The translations under genes were made by a program, and so were the position numbers. From positions 13,589 through 77,588 of the forward strand of contig PFGC01000037.1 of assembly GCA_002781785.1 (NCBI GenBank): DNA of 64,000 nucleotides, given 5' to 3'. The notes below the pieces were generated by a model, which saw nothing but the letters and a program-made list of their open reading frames with translations, did not search any database and was not told the origin of the DNA. The stretch's first letter is position 1, and each line of letters opens with the position of its first letter. Shown here in pieces: positions 3,175-61,782 of the stretch. Origin of the DNA: Candidatus Kerfeldbacteria bacterium CG15_BIG_FIL_POST_REV_8_21_14_020_45_12. GTDB taxonomy: Bacteria > Patescibacteriota > Patescibacteriia > UBA9570 > XYC2-FULL-38-9.

Positions 3175-3179
3175 TCTCT

Positions 3180-3725: not shown

Positions 3726-3733
3726 GGAAGACT

Positions 3734-4081
3734 ATGAGTATTGCACAAAAAAAACGAATGTCTCGAGGTCGACGCGCTCATCGAACGCGATCGCGATTCC
3801 ATGGTACAGCAGAGCGACCTCGCCTGTCTGTATTCCGATCTAACTTGCATATTTCTGCACAAGTTATTGATGATGTGTCCGGTGTAACCGTGGCGCAAGC
3901 TGATGACCGTGATTTAACTGGAACCAAGCGAGAAATTGCTCTAGCTGTTGGAAAGAGAATAGCTGAGGTGGCTAAAGCCAAGGGGATTGAAAGCATCGTC
4001 TTTGATCGCGGTGGTTATTTATATCATGGACGAGTCAAGGCATTAGCCGATGGAGCTCGTGAAGGCGGTTTGAAATTTTAA
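3734..4081 (+). CDS. rplR: 50S ribosomal protein L18
   Basis: 115 aa; [16 protein letters not shown]...FDRGGY.YHGRV. Confidence 0.9.
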
Positions 4082-23795: not shown

Positions 23796-24782
23796 ATGTT
23801 GAAGTATTTTTTTACAACTGTATTCGTAATTTCTCAGCTGATGGGATTATCCATCCCTGAAGCTTTGCAAGAGACTGACTACGTTTATATTGTACCAACT
23901 GTTGCTAGTGGAATCGTTGAGCATGAGGGAGGGGACTTGCCAATTGATCGATTTCAGTGGCAGTTAGATGATAAAAAAGAAACTGAGGTTGCACCACCTG
24001 TTCCAAGAGGTGACCTGTATGGGCCGCCATTGGAGGTTACTACCGCCATAGTGGTTGATGTTGAAACTGGACAGGTGCTGTGGCAGAAAAATCCAGATAG
24101 AGTAGTACCTATTGCATCTATTACTAAGCTGATGACGGCGTTAGTCTGGTTTGATTATCAGCCGGCTGATGGCTTTAACCATGTGCATACCTTTGCTCCA
24201 GAAGAAGACACTCCGGCGGGTAAGGAATTAAATCTGCCTCACGGAGCTCAGCTAACAGCCTTTGATTTATTGCGCAGTAGTTTAATAGGATCAGATAATG
24301 ATACTGCTCTGGCTTTAGCGCACACTACTGAGATGAGCGACGATGATTTTATCTTGGCCATGAATCGCAAGGCATCCGCACTATCAATGGATCAGTCTAC
24401 TTTTGCGGATCAAACTGGCTTGAGTGATAAGAACACAGCCTCTGCTCACGACGTGGCCAGGCTGGCTATTGCAGCCTTTAATAATCCTGAAATTGAAGAA
24501 CCAGCAGGAATGACTGAACATCTACAAGAGACTGCAGATGAGGGTGTTTTTTCTAGAGTCCTCACGACAGATGAATTATTATATGATTCTGAGTTTAATG
24601 TGGTCGCTGGAAAAACAGGTTACACCGATGAGGCTGGTTACTGCTTGGTGGTAAAGGTAAAAGTTCCAAACAGTGAACGAGAAGTAGTGAGTGTCGTACT
24701 GGGAACACCTTCAAATGATGGTCGCTTTAATTCAACAAAAACTTTAATAGATTGGACCTTTACTCATTATGACTGGAATTAA
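23796..24782 (+). CDS. D-alanyl-D-alanine carboxypeptidase (PBP5/6-like serine peptidase S11)
   Basis: SITK (SxxK), SDN and KTG motifs plus an N-terminal signal. Confidence 0.8.
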   Translation: MLKYFFTTVFVISQLMGLSIPEALQETDYVYIVPTVASGIVEHEGGDLPIDRFQWQLDDKKETEVAPPVPRGDLYGPPLEVTTAIVVDVETGQVLWQKNPDRVVPIASITKLMTALVWFDYQPADGFNHVHTFAPEEDTPAGKELNLPHGAQLTAFDLLRSSLIGSDNDTALALAHTTEMSDDDFILAMNRKASALSMDQSTFADQTGLSDKNTASAHDVARLAIAAFNNPEIEEPAGMTEHLQETADEGVFSRVLTTDELLYDSEFNVVAGKTGYTDEAGYCLVVKVKVPNSEREVVSVVLGTPSNDGRFNSTKTLIDWTFTHYDWN

Positions 24783-25260
24783 TTTTGTACAGTGGTTTGT
24801 TAATTTTCCACCAGAGCTAGCTACTGGGATTATTGCTATGCTGCCAATTGCAGAGTTGCGTGGTGCTATACCGGCTGGCTTGGTGATGGGTCTGAGTTGG
24901 CAACAAGCAGCCTTTTACGCTGTAATCGGAAATCTAATTCCAGTGGTAATTATTGTATATGTGATTGAACCGGTGTCTAATTTTTTACGCCAACGGGTAC
25001 CAATTTTTGATCGTTTTTTCACCTGGTTATTTGCGCGTACGCGCGAGAAATTTTATGAAAAGCACGCCAAGTGGGGTGACTTTGCGTTAGTAGTTTTTGT
25101 AGCTATTCCGTTGCCGGTAACAGGGGCTTGGACAGGAGCCTTGGCCTCTTGGCTCTTCGGAATTGCCCCAAAACGGGCTTTGCCGCTCATTTCAATCGGT
25201 GTTATACTAGCGGCCATAATCGTGACTGCACTGTCAGTTGGTGTGGTCTCACTGTTTTAA
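24769..25260 (+). CDS. Putative small multidrug export protein family (PF06695-like) membrane protein
   Basis: LPIAELRGAIP and IPLPVTGAWTGALASW motifs; 4 TM segments. Confidence 0.7.
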   Translation: MTGINFVQWFVNFPPELATGIIAMLPIAELRGAIPAGLVMGLSWQQAAFYAVIGNLIPVVIIVYVIEPVSNFLRQRVPIFDRFFTWLFARTREKFYEKHAKWGDFALVVFVAIPLPVTGAWTGALASWLFGIAPKRALPLISIGVILAAIIVTALSVGVVSLF

Positions 25261-39270: not shown

Positions 39271-40068
39271 CTATTTGTTGCCAGGCGCGGCTGGGCTAGT
39301 GACCAGCACCAGTAGGCCATCACGGTTGGCGCGACAGCCGCCACTGGCCATTGCCTCCCTGACGATGGCTTCCAGCTGATCCGCCACTTGAGGTGATGGA
39401 TCCTCATCCTCATCGTTGATGAAGTAGATTCCACAGATGTAGCTCTCCTGGTCGCCATCATCGACCCCGAGCATGACCCGAGTGCCGATGGGCAGATCCT
39501 CGATGCTGCTCAGACGATCCTGGATGGTTTCGAGCAGTTCAGCCACGGCAATGCCTAGCTCGGCGGTTTCGAGCAGGGGCATGTCCACCTTGCTGTCACC
39601 GGAGAGTTGGATCTTCATGCGGGAGCGTTCAGACCAGTCCTTGATCTGGGCATCGCAGACGATGGTTGCTGCGATCAGGTCGCTCAGGCTTGCGTTGCCG
39701 ATCGGTACAGTCCTAGCGAACGGAAGATCGAGGTACACGTGGAAGCTGTGCTGTCGCCGGTGCTTGAGCCCCAGGGCCTCTACCATCTCGGCGAGATTGA
39801 AGAGCATTTCGACGGCTCGGGGCAGGCAGGCAGGTCCCAGTTCGCCGACCGGCAGCAGGATCAGCATGGTGTCTTCACCATCGAGCGCCACCGGGTTGTT
39901 CGAGTCCATCAGGTCGATGCCTTCCTCGATGAGATCGGCACAGACCTCTTCCAGGGTGTTGGGGAAGGGTTGACCCAGAAGTGAGGTCAGGTGACCTGCC
40001 GAGTCAGTAGCTGTGAACAGGATCGTCACCGATCCGCTTGCTCCAGTGAAGATGTCAGTCGGTGTCAT
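39271..40068 (-). CDS. Unknown-function protein, paralog A of a tandem triad (GC-rich island)
   Basis: 265 aa from the ATG at 40068, which has a ctGGAGGacagATG ribosome-binding site. It shares blocks with B and C (VTILFTATDS.. / ..MLILLPVGELGPA). GC3-rich codons; promoter TTGACT-17-TAAGGT at 40105-40133 on the minus strand. Confidence 0.5.
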   Translation of the reverse strand: MTPTDIFTGASGSVTILFTATDSAGHLTSLLGQPFPNTLEEVCADLIEEGIDLMDSNNPVALDGEDTMLILLPVGELGPACLPRAVEMLFNLAEMVEALGLKHRRQHSFHVYLDLPFARTVPIGNASLSDLIAATIVCDAQIKDWSERSRMKIQLSGDSKVDMPLLETAELGIAVAELLETIQDRLSSIEDLPIGTRVMLGVDDGDQESYICGIYFINDEDEDPSPQVADQLEAIVREAMASGGCRANRDGLLVLVTSPAAPGNK

Positions 40069-40201
40069 CTGTCCTCCAGTAGCACTCACCTTGAGCGCGA
40101 TCTTACCTTAATAGCAAGGGTCGATCTAGTCAATAAAAAAAGAGACCCTACACGCACCTGGAGAGGTGGGTAGGGGTGAGAGAGACTTGCTGCGCCTCTG
40201 C

Positions 40202-40918
40202 TCAGGAGCTGGGGTTGTCCGTGCGGCGCCGGGAACCTCCCGCGCCGAAGCGGCGGAGGAGCTCCAGCAGCGACTCGCTGCCGTCGGTCTGGTCGCGGAA
40301 GATGTCTTCGACGTCGAAGCCGGGGCTGAAGCCGACGAACCGCACTCGGACCAGCGTCGGACCACGCGAGGTGGGATGGCCGCTGTTGAAGACGCCGTCG
40401 ATGGCATCTTTGGCTGCGGCGAGCTCCTTGAGCTCACGGCAGACCCAGGTGGGGTCCGTGAACACCCCGACGCTCGAGGAGACGCGACCGGTGGTGAGCA
40501 GATTGGTGATCCGTCCGAAGCTCAGCCCTCCGAGCAGGGCGAGGGCCCAGCTGACCTCGTCGTTGGAGACCTGCCAGAGATCGGACGGATCGATGGCGAT
40601 GGCCACGTCGGCGAGGTTCTGGTTGGTGACGTTGGCGACGATCTGTCGTCCCGCCATCGTCAGGCGGTTTGCCAGGCCTTCGTCGATCGCCCCCACCGGT
40701 ACGAACATGACCTTGCGGCCAGTCTGGGTGGTGTAGATCGTCGAGGCGGCCAGAGCATCACCGCGGATGCGGCGATGATCGGCGTTGAAGATGGCTTCAG
40801 CCTCGACGTCCTGGTGGAAGCCGAAGAGGGGGACGCGACCGAGGCCGCAGTAGCAGGTGCTGACCAGGATGACGGTCACGGCGGGGAGCTTTCCAGAGAA
40901 CAGGGGACGGGGCTGCAT
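40202..40918 (-). CDS. Unknown-function protein, paralog B of the tandem triad
   Basis: 238 aa; ATG with a GGAGG ribosome-binding site. Blocks AVTVILVSTCY and KVMFVPVGAIDEGLA align with A. Own promoter TTGACA-18-TATTGT (40999-41028, minus strand) and a downstream hairpin plus T-run. Confidence 0.5.
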   Translation of the reverse strand: MQPRPLFSGKLPAVTVILVSTCYCGLGRVPLFGFHQDVEAEAIFNADHRRIRGDALAASTIYTTQTGRKVMFVPVGAIDEGLANRLTMAGRQIVANVTNQNLADVAIAIDPSDLWQVSNDEVSWALALLGGLSFGRITNLLTTGRVSSSVGVFTDPTWVCRELKELAAAKDAIDGVFNSGHPTSRGPTLVRVRFVGFSPGFDVEDIFRDQTDGSESLLELLRRFGAGGSRRRTDNPSS

Positions 40919-41105: not shown

Positions 41106-41789
41106 CTAATCGCGGTAGAAGGGGGCCACGTCGATGGCCCAGCCACTGTTCCGCTCGATGGCGGCAAGCAGACGGTCGCCGAGGCGGCCGGCAGCCTTGC
41201 GTGGGTGTCGGATCGTCTGGCTGGTCTTGCGCCAGGTCTCCGCCAGTCGCTCTGACCGCTGCGCCCATGTCAGCCAGCTGCTGTGGATCCAGGCCATATC
41301 CCTGGCCGTCTGGTCGTCCACGACCTCCGGGCAGGTCACGAGCACCTGCGGGGCGAAGGGGGTGTTGCGCCAGCGAGCCATGGTAGCGACGGTCTCCATG
41401 CAGCCCATGATCAGCTGCATCAGGCAGGTGCCTCGCAGCTGGCCGGGGTCGAGTACCAGGCAGGTATGCGTGACCGAGAGGTGCTTCTGAATCAGCAGAG
41501 CTCCCAGGTACTGGCCGATGTGGCGGTAGTACAGGCTGCTCAGGTCACGCCAGTCCTGTCCGAGCCCGACCATGATCAGGGTGGCCGTACCCGAGACGGT
41601 GATCAGGGACATCACGTTGAGCTGGCCGGTGATGTCTGGGAAGCGGACGGCCGCGTCCATGATCGAGTTGAAGTAGCCTTCCGGCAGCTTGTCCGGGCTC
41701 GAGATGAGCACGGGCTGGTTGTTGTCATCGCGGCCCGTGAAGACGACGACGAAGCGGGTTGGTGCCAGGGTGAAAGGAACGGGGAGCAT
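41106..41789 (-). CDS. Unknown-function protein, paralog C of the tandem triad
   Basis: 228 aa from the ATG at 41789 (GGAGGcagtacATG). Blocks TRFVVVFTGRDD and VMSLITVSGTA resemble A and B. Own promoter TTGACC-17-TACACT (41843-41871, minus strand), divergent from the 41939 gene. Confidence 0.5.
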   Translation of the reverse strand: MLPVPFTLAPTRFVVVFTGRDDNNQPVLISSPDKLPEGYFNSIMDAAVRFPDITGQLNVMSLITVSGTATLIMVGLGQDWRDLSSLYYRHIGQYLGALLIQKHLSVTHTCLVLDPGQLRGTCLMQLIMGCMETVATMARWRNTPFAPQVLVTCPEVVDDQTARDMAWIHSSWLTWAQRSERLAETWRKTSQTIRHPRKAAGRLGDRLLAAIERNSGWAIDVAPFYRD

Positions 41790-41887
41790 GTACTGCCTCC
41801 AGTACGTCAGGGTGGTGCCGGCAGAAACTACCAAGCCGCCGCAGTGTATCCAAATATTTATTATAGGTCAACGCTTATTGTTAAATA

Positions 41888-46777: not shown

Positions 46778-49318
46778 ATGGAGGCATTTTTAGCTGGAAT
46801 AGACACATCAATGCTGATAGCGATATACGTTATAGGATCTTTGGCATTTTTGTTTTTTGTTGTTATGACGGTACGTTGGTTTGTTAGGCGTAGTTTGGAG
46901 AAGCCAAACGCCTTTCAAATGTCAGTGATGATGATTACCGTCCCGAAAGAAGGTCAAGCGGAAGATCAGCAAATGGGATTGTCATCTGATCAGGCTAAAG
47001 AGCGTATTTCAGTGGCTGAGGTTTTCTTTTCAACTTTAGGTGGAGTTAAAGCACAGCGCGGGTTAGCAGCTTGGTGGTACGGACGCAACGATCATTTTGC
47101 TTTGGAGATTGTAGCTGATCGTGAAGGTTTAGTGACTTTTTACGCAGCTGTACCAAGGTATATGCAACAGTACTTTGAGCAACAAATTCACGCGCAGTGG
47201 GAAGATGCCAAGATAGATGAAGTGGAAGATTATAATATTTTTGAACCACAAGGCGTAGTCGTTGGCTCAACCTTAAAGCTCACTAGGAGCCAGATTTTTC
47301 CGATTACGACTTACGATAAAATGGAGTCAGATCCACTTAATTCTCTGACCAACATTTTATCTCGATTTGAAAAGGAAGAGGGAGCGGCTGTGCAGATTGT
47401 TATTCGATCAGCTCGACCTGAGTGGCATAGGTTGCCCACCCAAGTCGCTAGAACCATGCAGCAAGGTAAAAGTGTGGACAGGGCTTACAGTGAAGTAACG
47501 GCAAATCTTTTTTCTAAGGTTTGGCGAGAGTTTGCCAGAGTGATCTCGCAAAAGCAAAATAAAACAGAAGCTGGAATTGATCCCCGGACAGACCGAGAGT
47601 ACCGAATCTCTCCAATGGAAGAGGAGGTAGTTAAGGCCCTAGAGGAAAAAACCAGCAAGGCCGGATTTGATGTAAATATTAGAGTGGTGGTGTCGGCGGC
47701 TAGGCAAGACGTGGCTACCTATAAACTGAATAATGTATTAAACGCTTTTACTCAGTATGCCGGCTATCAGTATGGAAATAAGTTTGTAGCTAGTAAACCG
47801 AGCACTAGTCCTGATTTGGTGAAAGATTTTATTTATCGTAATTTTGATGATAGGAAAAGTTACGTTTTGAATACAAAAGAAATGGCCTCGCTATGGCACT
47901 TGCCGTTACAGAACACCGAGACCCCTAATATTCGTTGGTTGATGTCCAAAAAATCACCACCTCCTTCAAACCTTCCAAAAGAGGGCGTTATTATTGGCGT
48001 GGTTGAATATCGCGGCAAGGAGCAGATGGTTAGAATCCAGCGAGCAGATAGAACCAGGCACATGTATATTATTGGTAAGTCTGGTTCTGGTAAGTCTGTT
48101 TTACTTACTTCAATGGTTATCCAGGATATCCAAAATGGTGAAGGCGTTGGCGTTATCGATCCGCACGGAGAATTGATTGAAGACATTTTGCCGCACATTC
48201 CAAAAGATCGCGCCGATGATGTGATTATTTTTGACCCGTCATATACTGATTATCCGATGGGTTTGAATATGCTCGAATATGAAAATGATGACCAGCGTGA
48301 TTTTGCAGTTCAAGAGATGGTCGCTATTTTCTATAAATTATTTGGAGAAGAGATGATTGGTCCGATGTTTGAGCATTACATGCGTAATGCGATGTTGGCG
48401 TTAATGGAAGATAAAGAGGCTGGCGCGACCTTGATTGAAGTCCCGCGCATGTTTACGGATGACAAGTTCCGCAAGGATAAAGTTAGCAAGGTAAAGAATT
48501 TAATCGTGAAGAATTTCTGGGAACAGGAATACGAACAGTCACAACAAGGTCAACAGGCAGCAGACATGTTGTCGTATGTTATCTCCAAGATTGGTAGGTT
48601 TTTGACTAATGACACGATGCGAAACATTATTGGTCAAAAAAAATCGGCCTTTAATTTTAAGGAGGTCATGGACAAGCAGAGTATTTTGTTAGTTAACCTG
48701 TCTAAGGGAAAAATTGGAGAAGTTAACTCATCATTGCTCGGATTAATTTGTGTCACAAAGCTGCAAATGGCAGCTATGGCCAGAGCTAGTCAGGCCAAGG
48801 CTGACCGCAAAGATTTTTATCTATACATGGATGAGTTTCAAAATTTTACTACAGATTCGATTGCAACTATTTTGTCTGAGGCACGTAAATATCGTTTGAA
48901 CTTAATCATGGCCCATCAGTATATTGGACAGCTGTCTGAAAATAACGACACTTCAATTCGAGATGCTGTTTTTGGTAATGCGGGCACGATGTTGTCTTTT
49001 AGAGTTGGTGCAGAAGATGCTGATTTCTTGGTAAAAGAGTACGCTCCAGTTTTTGATGAAAATGACATTATTAATGTTGATCAGTACACAGCTAATACGA
49101 AGCTATTGATAGATAATACAGCTTCTCGTCCATTTAATATGAAAACCATCATGCCGCCGGAGGGGGATCCTCATATGAGTGATGTGCTCAAAGAGATGGC
49201 TAAGTTAAAATATGGCAGTCCGCGGCAGGCCGTTGAAGACGATATTCGAGAGCGAGGAGCCTTAGATCGCCTTGGAAAACAAGGCCCATCGCCACTTGGG
49301 CCAGATTCGTTTATCTAG
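46778..49318 (+). CDS. Membrane-anchored FtsK/HerA-superfamily ATPase (VirB4/TraC-like, AAA_10/DUF87)
   Basis: 846 aa; N-terminal TM; Walker A YIIGKSGSGKS followed by GVIDPHGEL (HerA/VirB4 hallmark); Walker B LYMDEFQNF; HQYIGQL. Confidence 0.65.
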   Translation: MEAFLAGIDTSMLIAIYVIGSLAFLFFVVMTVRWFVRRSLEKPNAFQMSVMMITVPKEGQAEDQQMGLSSDQAKERISVAEVFFSTLGGVKAQRGLAAWWYGRNDHFALEIVADREGLVTFYAAVPRYMQQYFEQQIHAQWEDAKIDEVEDYNIFEPQGVVVGSTLKLTRSQIFPITTYDKMESDPLNSLTNILSRFEKEEGAAVQIVIRSARPEWHRLPTQVARTMQQGKSVDRAYSEVTANLFSKVWREFARVISQKQNKTEAGIDPRTDREYRISPMEEEVVKALEEKTSKAGFDVNIRVVVSAARQDVATYKLNNVLNAFTQYAGYQYGNKFVASKPSTSPDLVKDFIYRNFDDRKSYVLNTKEMASLWHLPLQNTETPNIRWLMSKKSPPPSNLPKEGVIIGVVEYRGKEQMVRIQRADRTRHMYIIGKSGSGKSVLLTSMVIQDIQNGEGVGVIDPHGELIEDILPHIPKDRADDVIIFDPSYTDYPMGLNMLEYENDDQRDFAVQEMVAIFYKLFGEEMIGPMFEHYMRNAMLALMEDKEAGATLIEVPRMFTDDKFRKDKVSKVKNLIVKNFWEQEYEQSQQGQQAADMLSYVISKIGRFLTNDTMRNIIGQKKSAFNFKEVMDKQSILLVNLSKGKIGEVNSSLLGLICVTKLQMAAMARASQAKADRKDFYLYMDEFQNFTTDSIATILSEARKYRLNLIMAHQYIGQLSENNDTSIRDAVFGNAGTMLSFRVGAEDADFLVKEYAPVFDENDIINVDQYTANTKLLIDNTASRPFNMKTIMPPEGDPHMSDVLKEMAKLKYGSPRQAVEDDIRERGALDRLGKQGPSPLGPDSFI

Positions 49319-50827: not shown

Positions 50828-52492
50828 TTGTATCGCATGTCTACCTCACTCTACCAAAAATATCGACCCCAGCGCTTTGCCGAATTGGTTAATCAAGCGC
50901 ATGTTAGAACAACTTTGTTAAATGAGTTAAAGCAAGGATCAACCTCTCATGCCTATCTCTTTTCTGGACCGCGCGGAGTTGGGAAAACCACTACTGCTAG
51001 ATTATTAGCGAGGGCAGTTAATTGTCAGAACCCAACGGAGGGCGAGCCCTGTAATGAATGTGATAATTGTAAGTTGATAACTTCTGGCCGGGCCTTGGAT
51101 GTTGTTGAAATAGACGCCGCTTCGCATACGGGAGTAGATAATGTCCGCGAAAATATTATTGAGAATGCACGGGTAGCGCCCTCTCAATTAGCCATGAAGG
51201 TATTTATTATTGATGAGGTGCACATGCTTTCCACCTCAGCCTTTAATGCTTTATTGAAGACCTTAGAAGAACCGCCTAAGCAGGTGATTTTTATATTGGC
51301 GACAACCGAAATCCATAAGTTGCCAGCAACGATTATTTCTCGATGTGAGCGGTTTCAGTTTCGAAAAATTGGTTACAGTGAAATGGAAGATAGATTGCGT
51401 GATCTAGCACGGAGAGAAGGCATCATGGTTGCTGATGAGGTTATCTCGGCCATTGCCAAGCAGTCAGAAGGAGCTTTGCGTGATGGTGAGAGTTTACTTG
51501 GTCAAATACTGTCTTTGGATGACAAAGAAATTTCAATGGAGTTGGCGTCCATAGTGATGCCACACACTGATCTGCGTGAGGTGCTAGGACTCTGGACTGA
51601 GCTTTTACGCGGACAACTTAGCTTGGCTATTCAACGGATAAATCGCTTGCGTGATGAGGGAGTACTTCTGACCGAGTTTACCAAGGAGTTAATAGATTTT
51701 TTGCGCAAGGTTCTATTATATAGAGTGCAGGATTCATTGTCGCCATTGGAGTATCTAGACCTTTCGAATGAAGAAGTTGCGCAGGTTGGTCAGTTAGCAG
51801 CCAAGCTGTCGCCAAAAGATATTTCGGAAATGATTGAGGTTTTCATGGCAGCACAGGAGCAGCTAAAGGATGCGAGGATTATTCAGTTACCTCTGGAGCT
51901 GGCTGCGGTAAAGTTAACAGGTGACGCCACGGATAAACCGATACCGAGCGTGGTCGTTCCAAGCCAGCCAACTAGTCCTACGGTAAAATCAGAACCGGTT
52001 AAGCATAGCGATACACCAGTAGCACCCGTTGATGTTCCAGTCGAATCTGTTAAAGAAGTTCCAGTCACTGCAGCAGATCCGATGGTTGATCAGGATTCTA
52101 AACCGTTTTCTTTGGAACAGGTATATGAAAAATGGAATGATCTACTTGAAGAGATGAAGCGATTAAACCACGCTTTACACTTGACCATGAAGGTTGGCAA
52201 GGTGGTGTCGGTTGAAGATAACCGTTTGATTATAGGTTTTGAATACCAGTTTTATCAGGACCGTCTTAATGACGCGCATAACCGACCGGTCTTAGATAAG
52301 GCTTTTGCAAATGTTTTTGGTATTCCAGTGATAGTGGAAACTGTTATTGGGTCAGAGTATGCTTTGTCATCATCTACCAATTCCTCAAATATTGCTCAAC
52401 CGAGCCCAGACGAGGTAGCTAACGTATGGGAGCTGGCTAGTAGCACTTTCGGAAATCAATTCACTCCCCAGGGCGAGGGCGATCCTCAGTAA
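50828..52492 (+). CDS. dnaX: DNA polymerase III subunit gamma/tau
   Basis: YRPQRF, GPRGVGKTT, a zinc module CxxCxxC, and SRC. Confidence 0.9.
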   Translation: MYRMSTSLYQKYRPQRFAELVNQAHVRTTLLNELKQGSTSHAYLFSGPRGVGKTTTARLLARAVNCQNPTEGEPCNECDNCKLITSGRALDVVEIDAASHTGVDNVRENIIENARVAPSQLAMKVFIIDEVHMLSTSAFNALLKTLEEPPKQVIFILATTEIHKLPATIISRCERFQFRKIGYSEMEDRLRDLARREGIMVADEVISAIAKQSEGALRDGESLLGQILSLDDKEISMELASIVMPHTDLREVLGLWTELLRGQLSLAIQRINRLRDEGVLLTEFTKELIDFLRKVLLYRVQDSLSPLEYLDLSNEEVAQVGQLAAKLSPKDISEMIEVFMAAQEQLKDARIIQLPLELAAVKLTGDATDKPIPSVVVPSQPTSPTVKSEPVKHSDTPVAPVDVPVESVKEVPVTAADPMVDQDSKPFSLEQVYEKWNDLLEEMKRLNHALHLTMKVGKVVSVEDNRLIIGFEYQFYQDRLNDAHNRPVLDKAFANVFGIPVIVETVIGSEYALSSSTNSSNIAQPSPDEVANVWELASSTFGNQFTPQGEGDPQ

Positions 52493-52617
52493 TTAAATAG
52501 CCCTATAGTAATTCGGGCAAGGTAGCCTGCTCTTGATCTTTTTCTCTAGTTTTAGTAGATTACGTGAGCAAAACATAACTTGAATAATCTGTGTTTTGTG
52601 AAAAGGTACTGATATAT

Positions 52618-52688
52618 TGGGGAGTCGCCAAGTGGTAAGGCACACGGTTCTGGTCCGTGTATCCGGGGTTCGAATCCCTGCTCCCCAG
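52618..52688 (+). tRNA. tRNA-Gln (anticodon CTG)
   Basis: U1-A72 acceptor TGGGGAG/CTCCCCA typical of tRNA-Gln, D-arm GCCAAGTGGTAAGGC, anticodon loop TTCTGGT, T-loop TTCGAAT. Confidence 0.85.
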
Positions 52689-52756
52689 CACTCATTTTCA
52701 GCGAAAAGATTGTAGTCGAAATTAAGACGCAAAATTGTAGATACCCGAATTAGTTT

Positions 52757-53836
52757 ATGATAATTTTATACATACTATTACTACTCGTTAGTTTTTATAT
52801 TCTAGCGATTGTTTGTGAAAGATATTTTGTTCAAAGTCTTCAGATAATAGGTAATAAACTACGCTTATCGGATGATGTTGTGGGAGCAACTTTAATGGCG
52901 GCTGGTAGTAGTGCGCCGGAACTTTTTACTTCGCTGATTGCCACCTTTACAATTGGAGCAGAAGATATAGGAGCAGGCACAATCGTTGGTTCGGCTATTT
53001 TTAACATTTTGATTATTATTGGCGCTTCAGCTTATGTGGCTACGGCTAAATTAAAATGGCAGCCAGTAATTAGAGATTTATTGGTTTACATTCTTGCAAT
53101 CGGGCTACTATTTTTTACATTTCGTGATGGACGTGTGACGCTCACGGAAGTTTCATTATACTTAGGGTTGTACGCTGCTTATATTATTTTACTGAGTCAG
53201 TGGAAGAGAATTACCGGTTCAGACAAAGCTTCCAATTCTCTTACGGATATTAGTGATCAAGTTGAAAATATTGAACATGACCTAGAAAAAAATAAAGTTG
53301 GGTGGAGATTTACTCTGTATGTTATTGATAATATTGTAGACAAGTTTTTTCCTGATCTAAACAAAAGGCCGCAGTTGTACGGTATTACCTTTGCAATCTC
53401 AATTGTCATAATTATTGCTCTAAGTTGGATTTTGGTGGAATCAGCCGTGGGGGTTGCTCATATACTTTCTATCCCACAAGCGATCATAGCCCTAACTATT
53501 TTGGCTGCAGGAACCTCTATTCCGGATCTTATTTCGTCTATAGTTGTGGCTAGGCAGGGTAAAAGTGATATGGCGATAAGCAATGCGACTGGTAGTAATA
53601 TTTTTGATATCTTATTTGGTTTAGGCTTGCCGTGGGCAATCTTCACATTAGTTCATGGAGAGAGTTTGGTTGTGGCAACTGAAAATATAAATTCTTCAGT
53701 AATTCTATTATTAGCCTCGGCTATAGCGATAATTGCAATTCTAATTATTGCAAGATTTAAAATTGGAAAAAAGATTGGCGTTTCCCTGATGGCTGTGTAT
53801 TTGGGTTACGTTTTGTACACAATCTATTTAATTTAA
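52757..53836 (+). CDS. Ca2+:cation antiporter (CaCA/YrbG family)
   Basis: Two alpha-repeats (GATLMAAGSSAPELF and AAGTSIPDLISS) separated by a cytoplasmic loop. Confidence 0.8.
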   Translation: MIILYILLLLVSFYILAIVCERYFVQSLQIIGNKLRLSDDVVGATLMAAGSSAPELFTSLIATFTIGAEDIGAGTIVGSAIFNILIIIGASAYVATAKLKWQPVIRDLLVYILAIGLLFFTFRDGRVTLTEVSLYLGLYAAYIILLSQWKRITGSDKASNSLTDISDQVENIEHDLEKNKVGWRFTLYVIDNIVDKFFPDLNKRPQLYGITFAISIVIIIALSWILVESAVGVAHILSIPQAIIALTILAAGTSIPDLISSIVVARQGKSDMAISNATGSNIFDILFGLGLPWAIFTLVHGESLVVATENINSSVILLLASAIAIIAILIIARFKIGKKIGVSLMAVYLGYVLYTIYLI

Positions 53837-53929
53837 TATCGTAGTTTAGTTAGTATTGCTCTGGTTTTTTATGAGCAACAGTAAAGCCTTGGTTTGGTAT
53901 TATTGCTACTTCAGTTTATACTGCCTGCT

Positions 53930-55246
53930 ATGAAAACATCATCTTACTCGCCACGCACATATGTGGCAGATATCATTATTTGGTCTTTAGCTGGAGTGGC
54001 AGTTGTGCTGTGGGCCTTGGCTCCTAGGCTCGAACCGGCCTTTAGTAGTTTTGGAAGTTCGGCCACAGCGATTGGTCAGATTTTAGGGCTGGTTGGAGTG
54101 TCTTTGTTTGCGGTTAACTTGATACTTAGTGCCCGTCTTAAATGGATTGAGTATATTTTTCAGGGGCTGAATAGAATGTATGTGCAGCACAGTCGTTACG
54201 GGCAAATTGCTTTCATGGCACTGTTGTTTCACCCTCTGCTTTTATCAATTCAATATAGCGCTGGATCATTTCTAGGAGCCGCTAAGTTTATTTTTCCAAG
54301 CAGTAATGTGGCGATGGATCTAGGAATTTTTGGTCTCGGGTCAATGATACTTTTGATTGTACTGACACTTTATCTGAGGCCGAAGTATAATTTATGGAAA
54401 TGGACCCATAAATTTTTTGGATTCTCTTTCTTCCTTGGATATTTACACGTCTTATTGATTCCAAGCACAGTTTCATCTTATCAGCCTTTACGAATCTACG
54501 TGTTGGCTCTGGCTGCCCTGGGGCTTATGGCATTTTTCTACCGTACAGTATTGGGTCGCTTTTTAGTTAGGCGCTTTCATTATTCGGTTGTGGCTGTTCA
54601 GCAACTCAATGATACTATTACGCAGGTTGTGATGAGGCCAAAAGGGCAGCGGTTGAGCTATGTGCCAGGTCAATTTTTGTTTGTTGGTTTTGAAGATCCC
54701 GCAGTTGGCTCTGAGTCCCATCCGTTTAGTATCGTGTCGTCTCCAACCGATGAAAATTTAGAGATTGCGGTAAAGAATCTCGGCGACTATACGGCTCGCT
54801 TGCCACAGTTGTCGAGTGGTTCATCGGTATATTTAGAGGGTCCGTACGGTACTTTCTTTTCATCCCTTAGAGTTTCTAATCAGCATATTTGGGTAGCCGG
54901 CGGAATTGGCATTACTCCGTTTATTAGTAAAGCCAGATCATTAGTGGGGGATAGTAGCCAAAAAGTAGATCTGTATTATTGTGTAAAAAATATTGGAGAG
55001 GCAGCCTATGTGGATGAGTTGCGACAACTAGAACAGTCTTTACAGGGACGGTTTCGTTTGTTCATATTTTGTTCAGATGTGGATGGACGAATTACTGCTG
55101 ATTACATTTCGACGACATCTGGCGGCCTGAGCGATAAAGATATTTATTTATGCGCGCCTCCGGTTATGATTCAAGCGATGAAGGGCCAATTCGTAAAGCA
55201 GGGTATTAATCCACGTAGACTTCATTCTGAAGAATTTAATTTCTGA
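53930..55246 (+). CDS. NOX/ferric-reductase-domain flavocytochrome (6 TM bis-heme + FAD + NAD(P)H)
   Basis: Two His pairs spaced 13-14 residues in TM helices (HSRYGQIAFMALLFH; HKFFGFSFFLGYLH), FAD motif HPFSI, and NAD motif GGIGITPF. Confidence 0.75.
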   Translation: MKTSSYSPRTYVADIIIWSLAGVAVVLWALAPRLEPAFSSFGSSATAIGQILGLVGVSLFAVNLILSARLKWIEYIFQGLNRMYVQHSRYGQIAFMALLFHPLLLSIQYSAGSFLGAAKFIFPSSNVAMDLGIFGLGSMILLIVLTLYLRPKYNLWKWTHKFFGFSFFLGYLHVLLIPSTVSSYQPLRIYVLALAALGLMAFFYRTVLGRFLVRRFHYSVVAVQQLNDTITQVVMRPKGQRLSYVPGQFLFVGFEDPAVGSESHPFSIVSSPTDENLEIAVKNLGDYTARLPQLSSGSSVYLEGPYGTFFSSLRVSNQHIWVAGGIGITPFISKARSLVGDSSQKVDLYYCVKNIGEAAYVDELRQLEQSLQGRFRLFIFCSDVDGRITADYISTTSGGLSDKDIYLCAPPVMIQAMKGQFVKQGINPRRLHSEEFNF

Positions 55247-55248
55247 TT

Positions 55249-55905
55249 ATGAAAAAAATTACTTTAGTTGCACTAGTAATTTTTACCATTATCGTTGTCG
55301 GTGTGGGTATTTTGGGGGTTTTGTTTCCTCCAGTTAAATCAAATACCGTGCCTAGTAAGTCTGCCAATGTAAATGGGGTCAATCAGGGTGCGACGACTCA
55401 GTCCGAAACGGCTGGTATTTCTAAAACAGAAATTTCCAAGCACTCAACCGCTAGTGATTGTTATTTGTTGATTAATGGTAATGTGTATGACGTTTCTGCT
55501 TACATCGGAGTTCATCCAGGTGGTAGCAGTAGTATTACCTCACGTTGCGGAGGTGAGGTGACTAGCATTTTTACAGCGATACATTCTAATTTCGCGTGGA
55601 ACCTGTTGGGCAAGTATTATATTGGACCTCTTGAGACAACAGTAGCTACTGGATCGACTGCAGACACAGGCACTTCTGCACAAGATGTTTTTACAGTAAT
55701 TCAGACAGCGTTGTTGGATAAATATCCAAACGCGGAAATAATCGCGACCAAGCCCTCTAAGAGTTATTATGTATCAAAGTTAATTTATCAGGGGACTTTG
55801 TATGAGGTGCACACAGATGCATTGGGCACTGTCTTGGGTGAGGAGGTGCAAGACGACGAGAACGACTGGACCATTTGGGATACTGACGCTGACGATCTGG
55901 AATAG
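55249..55905 (+). CDS. Membrane-anchored cytochrome b5-like heme-binding domain protein
   Basis: N-terminal TM, then YDVSAYIGVHPGG (cytochrome b5 HPGG motif), then a C-terminal domain. Confidence 0.6.
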   Translation: MKKITLVALVIFTIIVVGVGILGVLFPPVKSNTVPSKSANVNGVNQGATTQSETAGISKTEISKHSTASDCYLLINGNVYDVSAYIGVHPGGSSSITSRCGGEVTSIFTAIHSNFAWNLLGKYYIGPLETTVATGSTADTGTSAQDVFTVIQTALLDKYPNAEIIATKPSKSYYVSKLIYQGTLYEVHTDALGTVLGEEVQDDENDWTIWDTDADDLE

Positions 55906-55918
55906 GCCGCTCTGAGTC

Positions 55919-56428
55919 TTGCAAAATTATTTTTTCCAGAAAATGGATATCATAAAATATATTATCGGATACGTTTTCATCACCGCCTTGATTGTTGGAT
56001 TGATAGCTGTATTTTTTATGGCTATCGCTGCAGCATTTTATGGTTTCTTTGCGATAATTTGGGGATCGGTGTCAGGTTTGCTTTGGATGTTCCGTAAACC
56101 AAAAAAGCCAACCCATGTTTGCCAAATGTGTTGGTCGGTTGAGTCTTTTGATGATCCTACTAGTGCGACTTACGGATGTGGTTTTTGCAACTCTGAACTA
56201 GCTGCGCAATCTTTCTATATACCGGCTGATGTGTTTTTTCAAAATAATTCTGAGTCTGATTTGGAAGAAAAAATTGTCGAACAGATAGTCAAAATCAAGG
56301 ATGTCTCTAAGGAAACTTATCCGAATCATAGAGCTGCTACCCATGCCAAGTTTCATCGAAAGAACGGACTGAAAAGATTGAATAATTTACTGAAAATTAG
56401 CCGGAGATATTATCCGGGCAAGCCTTAG
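55919..56428 (+). CDS. Hypothetical membrane protein with a zinc ribbon (CxxC...CxxC)
   Basis: 2 TM N-terminus, then CQMCW...CGFC. Confidence 0.35.
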   Translation: MQNYFFQKMDIIKYIIGYVFITALIVGLIAVFFMAIAAAFYGFFAIIWGSVSGLLWMFRKPKKPTHVCQMCWSVESFDDPTSATYGCGFCNSELAAQSFYIPADVFFQNNSESDLEEKIVEQIVKIKDVSKETYPNHRAATHAKFHRKNGLKRLNNLLKISRRYYPGKP

Positions 56429-56512
56429 ATGTGAAAACTTGACTTAGTTGCTTATAAAAGTAATAGTAGTAGGTAATTGGTCCCGTAAATACATCAAAAT
56501 TAAGATAAAAAA

Positions 56513-57877
56513 ATGAGACGTAAAACACAAGGAATATTGGTCACAGCAGTTGGAATTGGTTGTCTATGGGCATCGGCTGCTCTAGCGCTGAACTGGCCAG
56601 CCACAAGTGCTACTTTAGTTGGAAGTGCTAATTCACTTGGTGCTGGATATGAACCTAGTGGTATTGTCGCTTTAGCAGATGGACGAGTGGCTATGGTTGG
56701 AGATGATGGTGATGTAACTTTGATGTCTCAAGAAGGGCAGATTATAGGCAATTGGTCGCCAGGTGGAGATTTGGAAGGCATCACTGAAATTGGCGATGGT
56801 TACGTTTATGTAGCGGTTGAGCACCCAGATACCATTAAACAATTTAATTTATCAACTGGTCAGTTTACAGGTAAGTCTTGGGATTTAACTGGCTGGTTGA
56901 AGGGTAGTGACAATCTCGGCATGGAGGCACTGACCTTTGTGCCAAATGGTCATCATCCTTATGTCTCAGGTTTGGCAGGAGGATTGTTTTACGCTGGCCT
57001 GCAAGCAGACGGAAAGATTTATGTTATTAATGTTGATCTAACGACAACCAACGCGGCTGAATTAGTTGATGTGATAGATTTGGGTAAAACTTCTGATATC
57101 TCCGGACTTGATTTTGATGTTGACACTGGCTTGATGTATGCCTTGTATGATGGGTACAACGAGTTGTTAGAGGCGACTCCAGCTGGTGAGATTTTAAAAA
57201 CCTATTCTGTAGTTGGTAATGATCAAGAGGGTATTGCTTTGGTGCCAAATTGTGAAACGGGGACAGCTTCGGTATTTATCGCTGAGGATGTGGGTCCAGA
57301 AGTATGGAGATATAGCCCATATCCAATCACTTGCCAAGTGGAAGTCCCTCCGGTAGTTGAGGAGCCTCCAATTGAAGAGGTTCCACCAGTTGTGGAGACG
57401 CCTCCAGTAGTTGAGGATCCAGCTCCAGTTGAACCACCAGTTGCTGATCCGGTGCCCAGCGAAACTCCTCCCGCTGATGAAGTTCCGCCAACTACTGAGG
57501 TTCCTGACGAGCCGGTGCCAACCGAAGAGCCTGCACCTACTGCGCCAGTAGAGGATGGTAGTGGTGACGGTGTATCTGAAACAGAGACACCTGTGGTAGA
57601 TCCGCCAGTTGTACCGGAAGATTTTCGTAAACATCACATTAAGCCGCGTAAAGTTAAGGTGCGCTGGAGTGATGTAGCTGATCGATACGAATTGGACTTG
57701 TATACCAAAGGTCGTGGCAAATTGGTCACAAGGTTCACTGGTCTAAATGAAGCAAAAAAAGTCATTGGTAAAAAATATTTGAAGTCGGATAGAAAATACT
57801 GGATCAGAGCCAGGGCTTGCAATGAGGCTGGCTGTTCAGAATATACTCCATATATTAAAATCAAGAATGGTAAATAA
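56513..57877 (+). CDS. Secreted beta-propeller-like protein with a Pro-rich linker and C-terminal FN3-like domain
   Basis: Signal peptide; Gly/Asp-rich repeat domain; ~90-aa PPVVE/PAPVE linker; C-terminal module (KVKVRWSDVADRYELDLYTKG...YWIRARACNEAGCSEYTP) resembling the C-terminus of the 21488 protein. Confidence 0.5.
   Translation: MRRKTQGILVTAVGIGCLWASAALALNWPATSATLVGSANSLGAGYEPSGIVALADGRVAMVGDDGDVTLMSQEGQIIGNWSPGGDLEGITEIGDGYVYVAVEHPDTIKQFNLSTGQFTGKSWDLTGWLKGSDNLGMEALTFVPNGHHPYVSGLAGGLFYAGLQADGKIYVINVDLTTTNAAELVDVIDLGKTSDISGLDFDVDTGLMYALYDGYNELLEATPAGEILKTYSVVGNDQEGIALVPNCETGTASVFIAEDVGPEVWRYSPYPITCQVEVPPVVEEPPIEEVPPVVETPPVVEDPAPVEPPVADPVPSETPPADEVPPTTEVPDEPVPTEEPAPTAPVEDGSGDGVSETETPVVDPPVVPEDFRKHHIKPRKVKVRWSDVADRYELDLYTKGRGKLVTRFTGLNEAKKVIGKKYLKSDRKYWIRARACNEAGCSEYTPYIKIKNGK
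57350..57620 (+). repeat. Degenerate tandem Pro-rich repeats (PPVVE/EVPP-type) encoding a linker
   Basis: Reiterated ccaccagttgt/ggagcctcc units within the 56513 CDS. Confidence 0.5.
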
Positions 57878-59661: not shown

Positions 59662-59760
59662 GACGTTCAGTGTACGGCAATTCTTTGGTTCAAACAATAG
59701 CCTTGCTGAAAAGTACTTTTTGTGGTACAATATTATAAATTAGTTCTTCTGATTCAAAGA

Positions 59761-61782
59761 ATGGAGTCTCGAACAAAAAAAACAATTGGATTAGTATCGC
59801 TATTAGTTTTGCTCATTGGAGCTACAGCCGTAGTCTGGTATTTAATATTATGGCCAAGGTATTTTGCGCCGGTTACTCAAGTTTCAGTTCAGCCTCAAGG
59901 TCAGCAGCAACAGCCGAGTAAAATAAAACCGGACTCAGCGGTAGTAGAAACAACTTCGAATGGTTTGATCAGCGTTGTTTCGGCAGAGGATTTAGCTGAT
60001 TATTTTGCTAGTAGTAACCTCAGCTATGGAGTTGGCGTGCTCCGGAGTGCTTCGGGAGTTGCCGAGACTGATGCTGCCTCAACTGAAACAATTGGTTTCG
60101 GTAGCTCTGATCAGACTGAGCGTTATTCAGAGACCAACGTGCAGGTTTCTGGAATAGACGAGCCTGACATTGTTAAAACAGATGGGGAACAATTATATAT
60201 CGCTCCAGATATTTTATACAGATATGCTTTTTCAAGTGATGTGTCGGAAAACCCCAAGGGAGGGGACGGACAGCAGTTGTCAAAAACAACTATCGTAGAT
60301 GCCTTGCCGGTAGAAGATATCTCTGTACTAGGAAATATAGATGAAGCAGCAACTGATTTATTGTTACACGATGATACCCTAATAGTTTTTTCAGATAGTG
60401 CTGTTACCGGATATGATGTTAAAACTTCAAGTGCGCCCAAGGACTTATGGTCATTGGCTCTAAATCAGGATCAATACTCTAGTGTGGTGATGGCGCGACT
60501 ATATAACGATAATTTGTATTTGGTGACAGTTACTTATCCAGATTCCGCGTTGCCTTGTCCATACGCGCCGTTGAGCACTGCAGCTTTTGATATTGAAATT
60601 TCATGTAGTGACATTTTACGTCCTCAGGCGACAACGGATAGTCGGGGTATTTATACAGTTTTAGTTATTAATCCAGGTACGGGAGAGGTTCAAGCTCAAG
60701 CCGCTTTGGCTGTCGAGAGCTATCAATCCGTCATGACAATGTTTGATGGAGGAATCTACCTGACTTACGTAGAACAGCCTGACCAGTTCTTGGTGTATAG
60801 AGATTTTTTTGCCAACGAAGGAGCGACCTTGATTGATGATGGTTTTACTGCACGTCTGGAAGAAATTGATAGCTACGATATTCATTCGGATAGTAAATTG
60901 ACGGAGTTGTACTATGAAATTCAAAAGCTTGATAGCTCTGCTGATATTGATCAGAATACTGGATTATCAGCCTTTGATTTAGCCTGGACTAAATATCAAG
61001 AAAGCCATGCCCGCGATTTAGAAAAAACTACAATCGTTAGAATGGCTTTGGATGATTTATCGATTGAAGCCACCGGCCAAGTGCCAGGGGATTTGTTAAA
61101 TCAATTTTCAATTGATGAGAGTGACGGATTTCTGAGGTTAGCAACTACTATCCATGGACCAAGCAATGACACTTCGGTGAATGATTTGTATGTGTTAGAT
61201 GAAAATCTTGCAATTGTTGGATCGGTGGCAGACCTAGGAGCGGGAGAGCGAATATATTCAGCTCGTTTCGTTGGAGCTGCTGGTTATATAGTAACTTATC
61301 GAGAGACTGATCCGTTCTTTGTATTTGATCTTTCAAATCCAGAGTTACCTAAGGTGGTGGGAGAGCTTAAGATTCCTGGTTATTCATCTTATCTACACCC
61401 GGTCGATGACGTGTCGGTTTTGGGAGTTGGTAAGAACGAGAAAGGAAAAATAAAATTATCTTGGTTTGACGTGACAGATCCAACAACGCCGGTTGAATCT
61501 AGTAAAGCAGTTATTGAGGAAGATTGGTCAGGCGTTCTTTCAACGCATCATGCTTTCTTACTTGATTCGGTACACTCTGTATTCTTTATACCAGCGGGAG
61601 ATAATGGATATGTTTATAGCTATGCAGGAGGCCTTCTTAAGCAAGTGCAAGAAGTGATTGACATCAAGGCCCGCCGTGCTGTTTATATTAATGATTATTT
61701 ATATATCATCGGAAGCAACTCAGTTGTAGTGCTGGATGAAAGCACTTGGAAAATAGTTGCTACCCTTAATTTAACGAAGTAA
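59761..61782 (+). CDS. Secreted beta-propeller-domain protein (COG4880-like)
   Basis: N-terminal TM anchor, ~650-aa extracytoplasmic domain. Extended -10 promoter TGGTACAAT at 59723-59731. Confidence 0.45.
   Translation: MESRTKKTIGLVSLLVLLIGATAVVWYLILWPRYFAPVTQVSVQPQGQQQQPSKIKPDSAVVETTSNGLISVVSAEDLADYFASSNLSYGVGVLRSASGVAETDAASTETIGFGSSDQTERYSETNVQVSGIDEPDIVKTDGEQLYIAPDILYRYAFSSDVSENPKGGDGQQLSKTTIVDALPVEDISVLGNIDEAATDLLLHDDTLIVFSDSAVTGYDVKTSSAPKDLWSLALNQDQYSSVVMARLYNDNLYLVTVTYPDSALPCPYAPLSTAAFDIEISCSDILRPQATTDSRGIYTVLVINPGTGEVQAQAALAVESYQSVMTMFDGGIYLTYVEQPDQFLVYRDFFANEGATLIDDGFTARLEEIDSYDIHSDSKLTELYYEIQKLDSSADIDQNTGLSAFDLAWTKYQESHARDLEKTTIVRMALDDLSIEATGQVPGDLLNQFSIDESDGFLRLATTIHGPSNDTSVNDLYVLDENLAIVGSVADLGAGERIYSARFVGAAGYIVTYRETDPFFVFDLSNPELPKVVGELKIPGYSSYLHPVDDVSVLGVGKNEKGKIKLSWFDVTDPTTPVESSKAVIEEDWSGVLSTHHAFLLDSVHSVFFIPAGDNGYVYSYAGGLLKQVQEVIDIKARRAVYINDYLYIIGSNSVVVLDESTWKIVATLNLTK

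Follow-up and report, generated by a model that had tools for sequence, protein, structure and literature searches.

Proteins with a ferric-reductase domain provide the closest described parallels to the locus considered here, a pair of adjacent genes in a 64-kb stretch of contig PFGC01000037.1 (64,000 nucleotides, called the window below) from a Candidatus Kerfeldbacteria bacterium, which belongs to the candidate phyla radiation (CPR). The first gene encodes a flavocytochrome resembling the NADPH oxidases (NOX), and the second encodes a membrane-tethered cytochrome b5 protein. SpNOX, the NADPH oxidase of Streptococcus pneumoniae (structures 8qq7 and 8qt6), has the same single-chain architecture as the flavocytochrome, with a six-transmembrane (TM), two-heme domain joined to an FAD/NAD(P)H domain (PMC5676040, PMC11564096). 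Purified SpNOX has an outer heme that, like that of MsrQ, is unusually open to solvent, and anaerobically the enzyme reduces cytochrome c directly at 124.7 per min, a higher rate than with O2 (48 per min) or Fe(III) (3.6 per min) (PMC11564096). The authors left room for a physiological acceptor other than O2 (PMC11564096). No dedicated cytochrome partner gene is described for SpNOX in these papers (PMC5676040, PMC11564096), whereas the NOX-like gene of the window has a translationally adjacent b5 gene.

A bis-heme ferric-reductase-domain protein with an exposed outer heme also feeds a soluble extracytoplasmic partner in the MsrQ/MsrP system (YedZ/YedY of E. coli; PMC11564096). MsrQ differs from the NOX-like protein in lacking a fused dehydrogenase domain and in taking its electrons from quinol or Fre, and its partner is a molybdoenzyme; an MsrP-like gene was not found at the window locus. 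The MsrQ-like flavinylation systems of Meheust et al. 2021 likewise contain PF01794, usually fused to an NAD-binding domain (PMC8238504). In these clusters, proteins that join PF01794 to an NAD-binding domain are accompanied by ApbE and FMN-binding carriers, and the proposal is that they relay the electrons of NAD(P)H to extracytosolic carriers, sometimes for iron assimilation (PMC8238504). The systems are defined by ApbE plus the FMN-binding carrier and occur mainly in Actinobacteria, whereas the carrier in the window is a predicted heme protein, and a hidden Markov model (HMM) of ApbE built from related loci has no match in the window. By analogy, the pair appears to resemble the MsrQ-like systems in its working and is not a member of them by the apbE/FMN-carrier definition. 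The b5 protein would correspond, with heme in place of flavin, to the flavinylated carriers, and relatives of the locus that bear ApbE fit this comparison.

The colocalisation of ferric-reductase and cytochrome b5 genes in CPR bacteria is already known. Among 7645 CPR genomes, a preprint by Hehenberger/Cahill et al. counted 1427 with PF01794, of which 185 also have a PF00173 gene no farther than 10 kb away. It called the association specific to CPR and proposed a membrane complex with a CPR-specific function; its text says nothing on topology (bioRxiv 10.1101/2021.11.17.468889). The window pair falls within the definition of these pFre-cytb5 clusters (PF01794 within 10 kb of PF00173 in a CPR genome). 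The pFre operons detailed in the preprint contain a Tyr-ligating, MAPR-like cytb5MY, CBLA/CBLB and a two-component system, in contrast to the single b5 gene of the window, which is of the bis-His type and is the only b5 gene in the 64 kb. No two-component genes were found among the window neighbours examined. Judged by its sequences, the locus is one of the simpler 'pFre + classical b5' subset and not of the putative ancestral form. What the present analysis adds is an outward-facing, disulfide-type b5 (predicted), a tight two-gene unit, a subfamily with a PepSY-like domain and an acidic tail, variants with tandem b5 domains and with ApbE, and examples from DPANN archaea.

We consider it reasonably probable, though by no means certain, that the two proteins together act as a transmembrane NAD(P)H:cytochrome b5 oxidoreductase of two components, an electron conduit to the cell surface. 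What the sequences show is the domain composition, the residues that serve as cofactor ligands, a membrane topology derived from sequence rules and the retention of the two genes as neighbours. The NOX-like gene has the following features, with residue numbers counted from the ATG at 53930.

53930..55246, + strand: NOX-like (SpNOX-type) flavocytochrome, 438 aa, with a six-TM ferric-reductase domain and a predicted cytoplasmic FAD/NAD(P)H dehydrogenase domain (Pfam, SpNOX alignment)
54188..54232, + strand: predicted heme ligands in TM3 with X13 spacing, H87 for the inner and H101 for the outer heme; counterparts in SpNOX are H69 and H83 (ligand numbering from PMC11564096)
54407..54448, + strand: predicted heme ligands in TM5 with X12 spacing, H160 for the inner and H173 for the outer heme; counterparts in SpNOX are H129 and H142 (ligand numbering from PMC11564096)
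54719..54730, + strand: HPFS FAD-binding motif at residue 264, inside the PF08022 match; H264 and P265 invariant
54899..54922, + strand: GGIGITPF NAD(P)H-binding motif at residue 324, inside the PF00175 match

The protein matches PF01794 Ferric_reduct with 39.7 bits against a cut-off of 28, and its matches to PF08022 FAD_binding_8 (E 1.7e-13) and PF00175 NAD_binding_1 (E 1.7e-10) are both above the Pfam cut-offs. Its closest solved relative is SpNOX 8qq7 (E 3.3e-33, over residues 65-438 of a 450-aa reading), and the four heme His, the TM2 Arg, HPFS and GGIGITPF all align between the two proteins, neither of which has a large extracellular cap. In an alignment of 20 homologues (42-61% identity), the four heme His and the TM2 Arg R69 are invariant, as are G324, G325, G327, T329, P330 and F331 of the GGIGITPF motif. 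The C-terminus reads HSEEFNF, with E434, E435 and F436 invariant, and the HMMER alignment to SpNOX ends short of the C-terminus, where SpNOX has F397, the aromatic residue that gates its flavin. The loop after TM3 is about 11 residues longer than in SpNOX. The alignment of the homologues favours the ATG at 53930 as the start codon. A database (JGI) gene call of 413 aa from a GTG at 54005 would remove TM1, which holds an invariant Trp, and the upstream TTG at 53894 probably gives too long a protein.

The TM domain alone is only weakly similar to that of SpNOX (E 2e-4), which is its sole match among PDB entries; no eukaryotic NOX TM domain is reached. The eukaryotic FRE/FRO and NOX1-5/DUOX proteins belong to the same superfamily and share the X13/X12 His spacing and the FAD/NADPH motifs with the NOX-like protein, of which the dehydrogenase domain alone matches eukaryotic NOX (DUOX1 1.5e-10, NOX5 4e-7, NOX2 1.8e-4). 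Unlike eukaryotic NOX, the protein has no regulatory subunits, EF-hands or extracellular cap, and its acceptor is probably a protein. On sequence criteria, the open reading frame (ORF) 53930-55246 belongs to the bacterial, SpNOX-like branch within the superfamily of ferric-reductase-domain proteins, an assignment that does not imply oxidase activity. A six-helix model fits the positive-inside rule, with at least 8 K/R on cytoplasmic loops versus 2 on external loops. Because the K/R distribution obeys this rule, the N-terminus and the dehydrogenase domain are predicted to be cytoplasmic, which would place H101 and H173 near the outer face.

The partner gene begins immediately downstream. The junction is TGA-TT-ATG, and the parts of the encoded protein were defined from an alignment of 27 full-length homologues together with an AlphaFold (AF2) model (mean pLDDT 80).

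55249..55905, + strand: membrane-tethered cytochrome b5 protein, 218 aa (PF00173), starting 2 nt past the NOX stop
55252..55323, + strand: predicted N-terminal signal-anchor TM helix, residues 2-25, N-terminus inside (AF2 pLDDT >88; Kyte-Doolittle hydropathy 3.02)
55324..55413, + strand: S/T/N-rich low-complexity flexible linker, residues 26-55 (pLDDT <50 at residues 34-53)
55414..55632, + strand: cytochrome b5 domain, residues 56-128, with predicted axial H89 (in VHPGG) and H112 and the Cys pair C71/C100
55678..55848, + strand: PepSY-like/BLIP-like (DUF2874-type) alpha + 4-beta domain by model, residues 144-200 (AF2 pLDDT ~90)
55849..55902, + strand: acidic Trp-containing tail, consensus EEVENDExDWSxWDxDxDD; E204, W207 and D213 invariant in the 27 homologues

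A conserved MKK precedes the anchor helix in the 27 homologues, and the linker that follows varies among them in both length and sequence. The b5 protein is 100% identical to one from Candidatus Kerfeldbacteria, in line with a CPR source. The b5 domain matches PF00173 with 69.1 bits against a cut-off of 23.7 (E 3.3e-19). H89, H112, C71 and C100 are invariant in the alignment, and the two His align to the heme ligands of b5, b2 and b558. The modelled domain superposes on solved b5 structures with Foldseek TM-scores of 0.83-0.88 (target-normalised) and a root-mean-square deviation (rmsd) of about 1.1 Å. One of these structures is the b558 of Ectothiorhodospira vacuolata (1CXY; TM-score 0.83), with which the domain has in common the b5 fold, the axial His and both Cys positions. 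The b558 differs in being soluble, without an anchor, linker or PepSY-like domain, and in an insertion before the second His that the window domain lacks. Its sequence places the domain among the classical bis-His b5 domains, and within these with the bacterial b558 type; heme binding is predicted.

A short linker separates the b5 domain from the C-terminal domain, which is predicted to fold as one helix and a four-stranded sheet. This domain has no Pfam match at E <= 0.01, and a profile search of the PDB finds the BLIP-like 4fr9 at E 0.002. The top Foldseek matches (4hbr, 4fr9, 3u1w and 4k61; probability 1.0, rmsd 1.3 Å over about 52 residues, E ~1e-2) are periplasmic Bacteroides PepSY-like/DUF2874 proteins. 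The modelled fold agrees with a PepSY-like/BLIP-like (PF11396-type) domain, while membership by sequence is borderline. A profile of the domain and tail gave 26 matches at E <= 1e-10 among 1.84 billion representative proteins, and the combination is almost confined to the C-termini of b5 proteins of 200-260 aa.

Several features bear on the side of the membrane on which the b5 domain lies. Of 45 homologues, 36 have an anchor whose N-terminal flank is more positive than its C-terminal flank, 8 show no difference and 1 has the less positive flank at the N-terminal side; the mean net charge over the 45 is +1.9 on the N-flank and +0.3 on the C-flank. C71 and C100 both align to Cys residues of the periplasmic 1CXY (profile E 1.2e-16). 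The two Cys of 1CXY are reported to form a disulfide (Kostanjevecki et al. 1999). The related loci encode two Cys per b5 domain, with mostly 2 in single-domain partners and 4 in double-domain partners. Relatives of the b5 protein also carry Thr/Pro-rich linkers of an extracellular style. Because of the charge trend in 45 homologues, the Cys pair, the periplasmic-type C-terminal domain and these linkers, we favour an N-in, C-out signal anchor that would hold the b5 domain outside the cell.

The same features make it hardly credible that the b5 domain is cytoplasmic, where it would be reduced directly by the FAD/NAD(P)H domain and feed a membrane desaturase or hydroxylase. Such an arrangement could draw on the weak similarity of the dehydrogenase domain to NADH-cytochrome b5 reductases (2eix, 7rom) and on the labels given to certain homologues ('cytochrome b involved in lipid metabolism'; 'NADH-cytochrome b5'). 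However, it goes against the flank charges and the extracellular-style linkers of the homologues, the Cys pair in common with periplasmic b558 and the periplasmic-type C-terminal domain; it would leave the two transmembrane hemes without a purpose, and no desaturase was found nearby, either among the window neighbours or in 82 related loci.

An earlier note, made from the window sequence alone, had described four ORFs in this region, and all four were found on the + strand where it had placed them (52757-53836, 53930-55246, 55249-55905 and 55919/55943-56428). Its identification of a bis-heme flavocytochrome of the NOX/ferric-reductase type agrees with the SpNOX match, the four aligned heme His and the HPFS and GGIGITPF motifs. 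Its 'two His-X13-His' helices need a correction: both His pairs do lie in TM helices, but their spacing is X13 and X12, as is canonical for NOX/FRE proteins. The membrane-tethered b5 protein that it reported next door is extracytoplasmic by prediction, as it had proposed, on the strength of the charge trend, the Cys pair and the type of the C-terminal domain. Neither of the two findings that it had named beforehand as refuting, heme His outside TM helices and a cytoplasmic b5 domain, emerged from the analysis. The roles that it had suggested, in acquiring iron or in producing reactive oxygen species, are possible ones.

Comparison with relatives shows which part of the region is conserved. The flavocytochrome has more than 1,300 homologues, and the named ones come from Buchanan-, Komeili-, Gracili-, Woese- and Paceibacteria, other CPR lineages and one Micrarchaeota archaeon. 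A scan with one genome per species confirmed at least 592 loci. The best 80 of these at least 592 loci belong to CPR classes and DPANN archaea, apart from a few metagenome-assembled genomes under other taxonomic labels, which are possibly mis-binned. The earlier note had called such a system unexpected in a CPR genome; these counts and the frequency of PF01794 among CPR genomes (bioRxiv 10.1101/2021.11.17.468889) speak against that view.

Partners were counted in 82 related loci, and the b5 proteins were recognised with an HMM derived from the partners themselves. Of the 82 loci, 44 have a b5 ORF at most 4 kb from the NOX-like gene, and in 37 it lies no more than 100 nt downstream on the same strand. 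With the divergent b5-like partners recognised by BLAST clustering added, the count rises to 51 of 82. A hydrophobic N-terminal segment is present in 46 of 47 partner ORFs. The pairing of NOX-like and b5 genes is far beyond chance. The two genes stay together in changing surroundings, both in CPR groups such as Gracilibacteria, Buchananbacteria, Paceibacteria and Wolfebacteria and in DPANN archaea. At the locus of a 61%-identical homologue, a b5 gene of 212 aa with the PepSY-like extension lies directly downstream, and the flanking genes encode an ABC ATPase and an HI0933-like flavoprotein. Partners made of an anchor and a b5 domain only lie directly downstream at a Gracilibacteria locus (119 aa) and a Buchananbacteria locus (118 aa), where the other neighbours differ. 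At a Micrarchaeota locus, the b5 gene is just upstream of the NOX-like gene, and the same contig bears archaeal ribosomal protein genes. The pairing is thus not strictly CPR-specific, since there are clear DPANN examples such as this contig.

Two further ORFs flank the pair in the window.

52757..53836, + strand: YrbG/NCKX-like CaCA cation antiporter by family match, 359 aa (PF01699 and TIGR00367); adjacent, outside the conserved unit
55943..56428 (alternative TTG start 55919), + strand: orphan membrane-hairpin protein, 169/161 aa; adjacent, outside the conserved unit

The first contains PF01699 in two repeats (E 1.4e-54) and scores 231.6 bits against TIGR00367 (cut-off 179.65). By family criteria, it is a YrbG-type CaCA antiporter, which does not imply an ion specificity. 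The second has a two-TM hairpin, a basic stretch and then a predicted cytoplasmic Zn-ribbon motif, CxxC-X15-CxxC (Cys 68/71/87/90 in the 169-aa numbering). It has no Pfam or NCBIfam match, and a search of 5.8 billion proteins returned only a self match, with no homologue outside its own genome; we treat it as a putative lineage-specific orphan. A tRNA-Gln gene (52618-52689) sits between the four-gene block and dnaX upstream.

The earlier note had proposed that all four genes form one redox/ion module. In such a module, cation export could, for example, offset the export of electrons. The genes are on the same strand with gaps of 93, 2 and 13-37 nt, and charge compensation would be sensible since electron export of the NOX type is electrogenic. 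Nevertheless, we regard a four-gene module as very improbable. The 61%-identical locus keeps only the NOX-like and b5 genes, neither a CaCA nor a Zn-ribbon gene is present at that locus or at the Gracilibacteria and Buchananbacteria loci, no CaCA or Zn-ribbon cluster was found among the neighbours in the 82 loci, and the Zn-ribbon protein is an orphan. Because only the NOX-like and b5 genes recur in relatives and their coding regions are 2 nt apart, the unit of function, as far as sequence can tell, is the gene pair and not the four genes. The two genes are predicted to be co-transcribed. A promoter and terminator scan of 52400-56700 was uninformative. For the window, the result is a sound annotation in which the proposed four-gene module is pruned to two genes.

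The domain order suggests how the pair could work. NAD(P)H derived from fermentation would give a hydride to FAD in the cytoplasmic dehydrogenase domain, and single electrons would then traverse the membrane from the inner heme (H87/H160) to the outer heme (H101/H173). From there, they would pass to the heme of the b5 domain, held outside by the anchor and the flexible linker of about 30 residues. This step is plausible because SpNOX's outer heme is exposed and the enzyme reduces cytochrome c directly. The reduced b5 may in turn serve an acceptor at the surface, for which O2, Fe(III)/Cu(II) chelates and a redox protein of the cell envelope or the host are candidates. We infer the direction, from NAD(P)H to b5, from typical potentials of about -320 mV versus near 0 mV. 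The net effect would be that an organism lacking a respiratory chain could dispose of reducing equivalents and possibly assimilate metals by reduction, and the physiological role of the pair is presumed to be that of an electron outlet.

A role of the b5 protein as a hemophore or in heme scavenging was considered and judged unlikely. It leaves the fused NAD(P)H domain of the partner unexplained, and bis-His b5 domains bind heme tightly in both redox states, which counts against such a role.

Several observations weigh against the pair as an electron conduit to the surface. About 40% of the related loci have no recognisable b5 gene within 4 kb, and the NOX-like protein can therefore evidently work without b5, with other acceptors. 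Across the 82 loci, neither a terminal acceptor nor an iron transporter or a reductase partner is a conserved neighbour. In the window protein itself, the charge difference across the b5 anchor is nil (+2 on each side), and the predicted topology therefore draws on the trend across the family, on the Cys pair and on domain homology. The pair would need a supply of three b hemes. CPR bacteria mostly lack heme synthesis, and of the window genes checked none was seen to serve in making heme or taking it up.

The loci without a b5 partner would suit a true NADPH oxidase that passes its electrons to O2, either producing superoxide/H2O2 at the interface between symbiont and host or scavenging O2, with the b5 protein as an accessory or unrelated. 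SpNOX, the nearest solved relative, does consume O2 and is described as a bacterial NOX. We consider this explanation improbable. That b5 stays tightly coupled to the NOX-like gene in bacteria and archaea alike speaks for a functional partner, and the TM domain reaches SpNOX alone in the PDB and not the eukaryotic NOX TM domains. SpNOX itself lacks an O2 site like that of other NOXs, and its N84A and Y105F variants, altered at the candidate site, were no less active (PMC11564096). N84, a candidate O2-site residue, is aligned to a Pro in the NOX-like protein. The CG-series name of the source organism indicates a subsurface sample, where O2 would presumably be low.

Another explanation concerns the fate of the electrons. 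The pair could be an assimilatory ferric or cupric reductase with the b5 protein as an extension arm, and the reduced ion would then be imported, as with yeast FRE and plant FRO. This possibility overlaps with the electron conduit preferred here and differs from it only in the terminal acceptor and the purpose. The NOX-like protein does belong to the Pfam ferric-reductase superfamily, and 153 MsrQ-like clusters elsewhere are tied to the iron transporter VIT1 (PMC8238504). The conserved acidic tail of the b5 protein could bind cations, and the structural relatives of the PepSY-like domain include proteins deposited as calcium-binding. Heavy-metal P1B ATPases (with an HMA domain) or small Cupredoxin_1 proteins occur in 5-6 of the 82 loci (L022, L031, L042, L046, L052 and L074), which hints weakly at a connection with copper or metal handling. 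However, this association is seen in few loci and could be a coincidence, and an iron or copper importer is not conserved beside the pair in the window or in most loci. Fe reduction by SpNOX is very low and was judged by its authors to be probably not physiological (PMC11564096). No iron transporter, MsrP, superoxide dismutase (SOD) or desaturase was found as a conserved partner in the 82 loci. On balance, an assimilatory reductase is possible but rather unlikely.

The two-gene electron conduit is varied among relatives. In some CPR relatives, one N-terminal anchor is followed by two or three b5 domains in tandem (L027 1835-3253; L028 5257-6192; L031 1605-2522; L049 5245-6342; L066 5270-6097), which suggests a multi-heme electron relay. 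Nine loci have a gene for ApbE, an FMN transferase, beside the NOX-like gene: in five from DPANN archaea (L048, L052, L080, L084 and L088, at about 3070-4020) it is directly upstream, and in four from Saccharibacteria (L050, L060, L061 and L071) it is near. No FMN-binding target was identified in them. A broader proposal is that the pair is a minimal, quinone-independent extracellular chain (NAD(P)H to FAD to two b hemes to 1-3 b5 hemes) that ultra-small episymbiotic CPR bacteria and DPANN archaea share, probably via horizontal transfer, and use to discharge fermentative reducing power onto external or host acceptors, with a b5 carrier that could be swapped for ApbE-flavinylated carriers in relatives. 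We offer this generalisation only tentatively and think it unlikely.

A three-heme, one-flavin route from NAD(P)H to the surface, if true, would matter for redox rebalancing, metal reduction or host interaction of CPR cells. As a minimal chain, it would amount to respiration by proxy in organisms thought to be without an electron-transport chain. The linked extracytoplasmic b5 would be a concrete candidate for the physiological acceptor of SpNOX-type enzymes. The demand for three b hemes raises the question of the heme source in organisms thought to lack heme synthesis.

Besides b5, ApbE and P1B ATPase/Cupredoxin_1 genes, the only neighbours that recur in the 82 loci encode DUF4352 proteins and ABC/FtsX permeases. 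Saccharibacteria have a conserved order in which the NOX-like gene is accompanied by a divergent b5-like protein (NHPGP motif, Thr/Pro linker) and a DUF4352 membrane protein. The b5-like protein is only marginal in Pfam (E 0.02). The DUF4352 protein is encoded in 13 Saccharibacteria loci (L038, L050, L051, L059-L061, L063-L065, L068, L071, L075 and L087); of these, L071 lacks a b5-like gene, and the b5-type partner in L087 is of a different kind. ABC/FtsX permeases occur in 9 of the 82 loci. None of the DUF4352, ABC/FtsX permease, ApbE and P1B ATPase/Cupredoxin_1 genes of relatives was found in the window.

Elsewhere in the window, a weak HMM match at 24751-25257 was considered as a second NOX-like copy and found to be spurious, being a small multidrug export protein. 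The segment 38900-41900 has a GC content of 0.53-0.61 against a background of about 0.43 and lies among + strand housekeeping genes. It holds three minus-strand ORFs (39271-40089, 40202-40918 and 41106-41834) without a Pfam match and is probably a foreign island. An 846-aa type IV secretion coupling protein of the VirD4/TraG type (T4SS-DNA_transf, TrwB_AAD_bind) is encoded at 46778-49318. Downstream of the four-gene block, 56513-57877 encodes a large secreted beta-propeller protein, SdiA-regulated/phytase-like, with a long Pro-rich linker, and 59722-61782 encodes a large secreted PF09826 Beta_propel protein. These two beta-propeller proteins are likely surface proteins.

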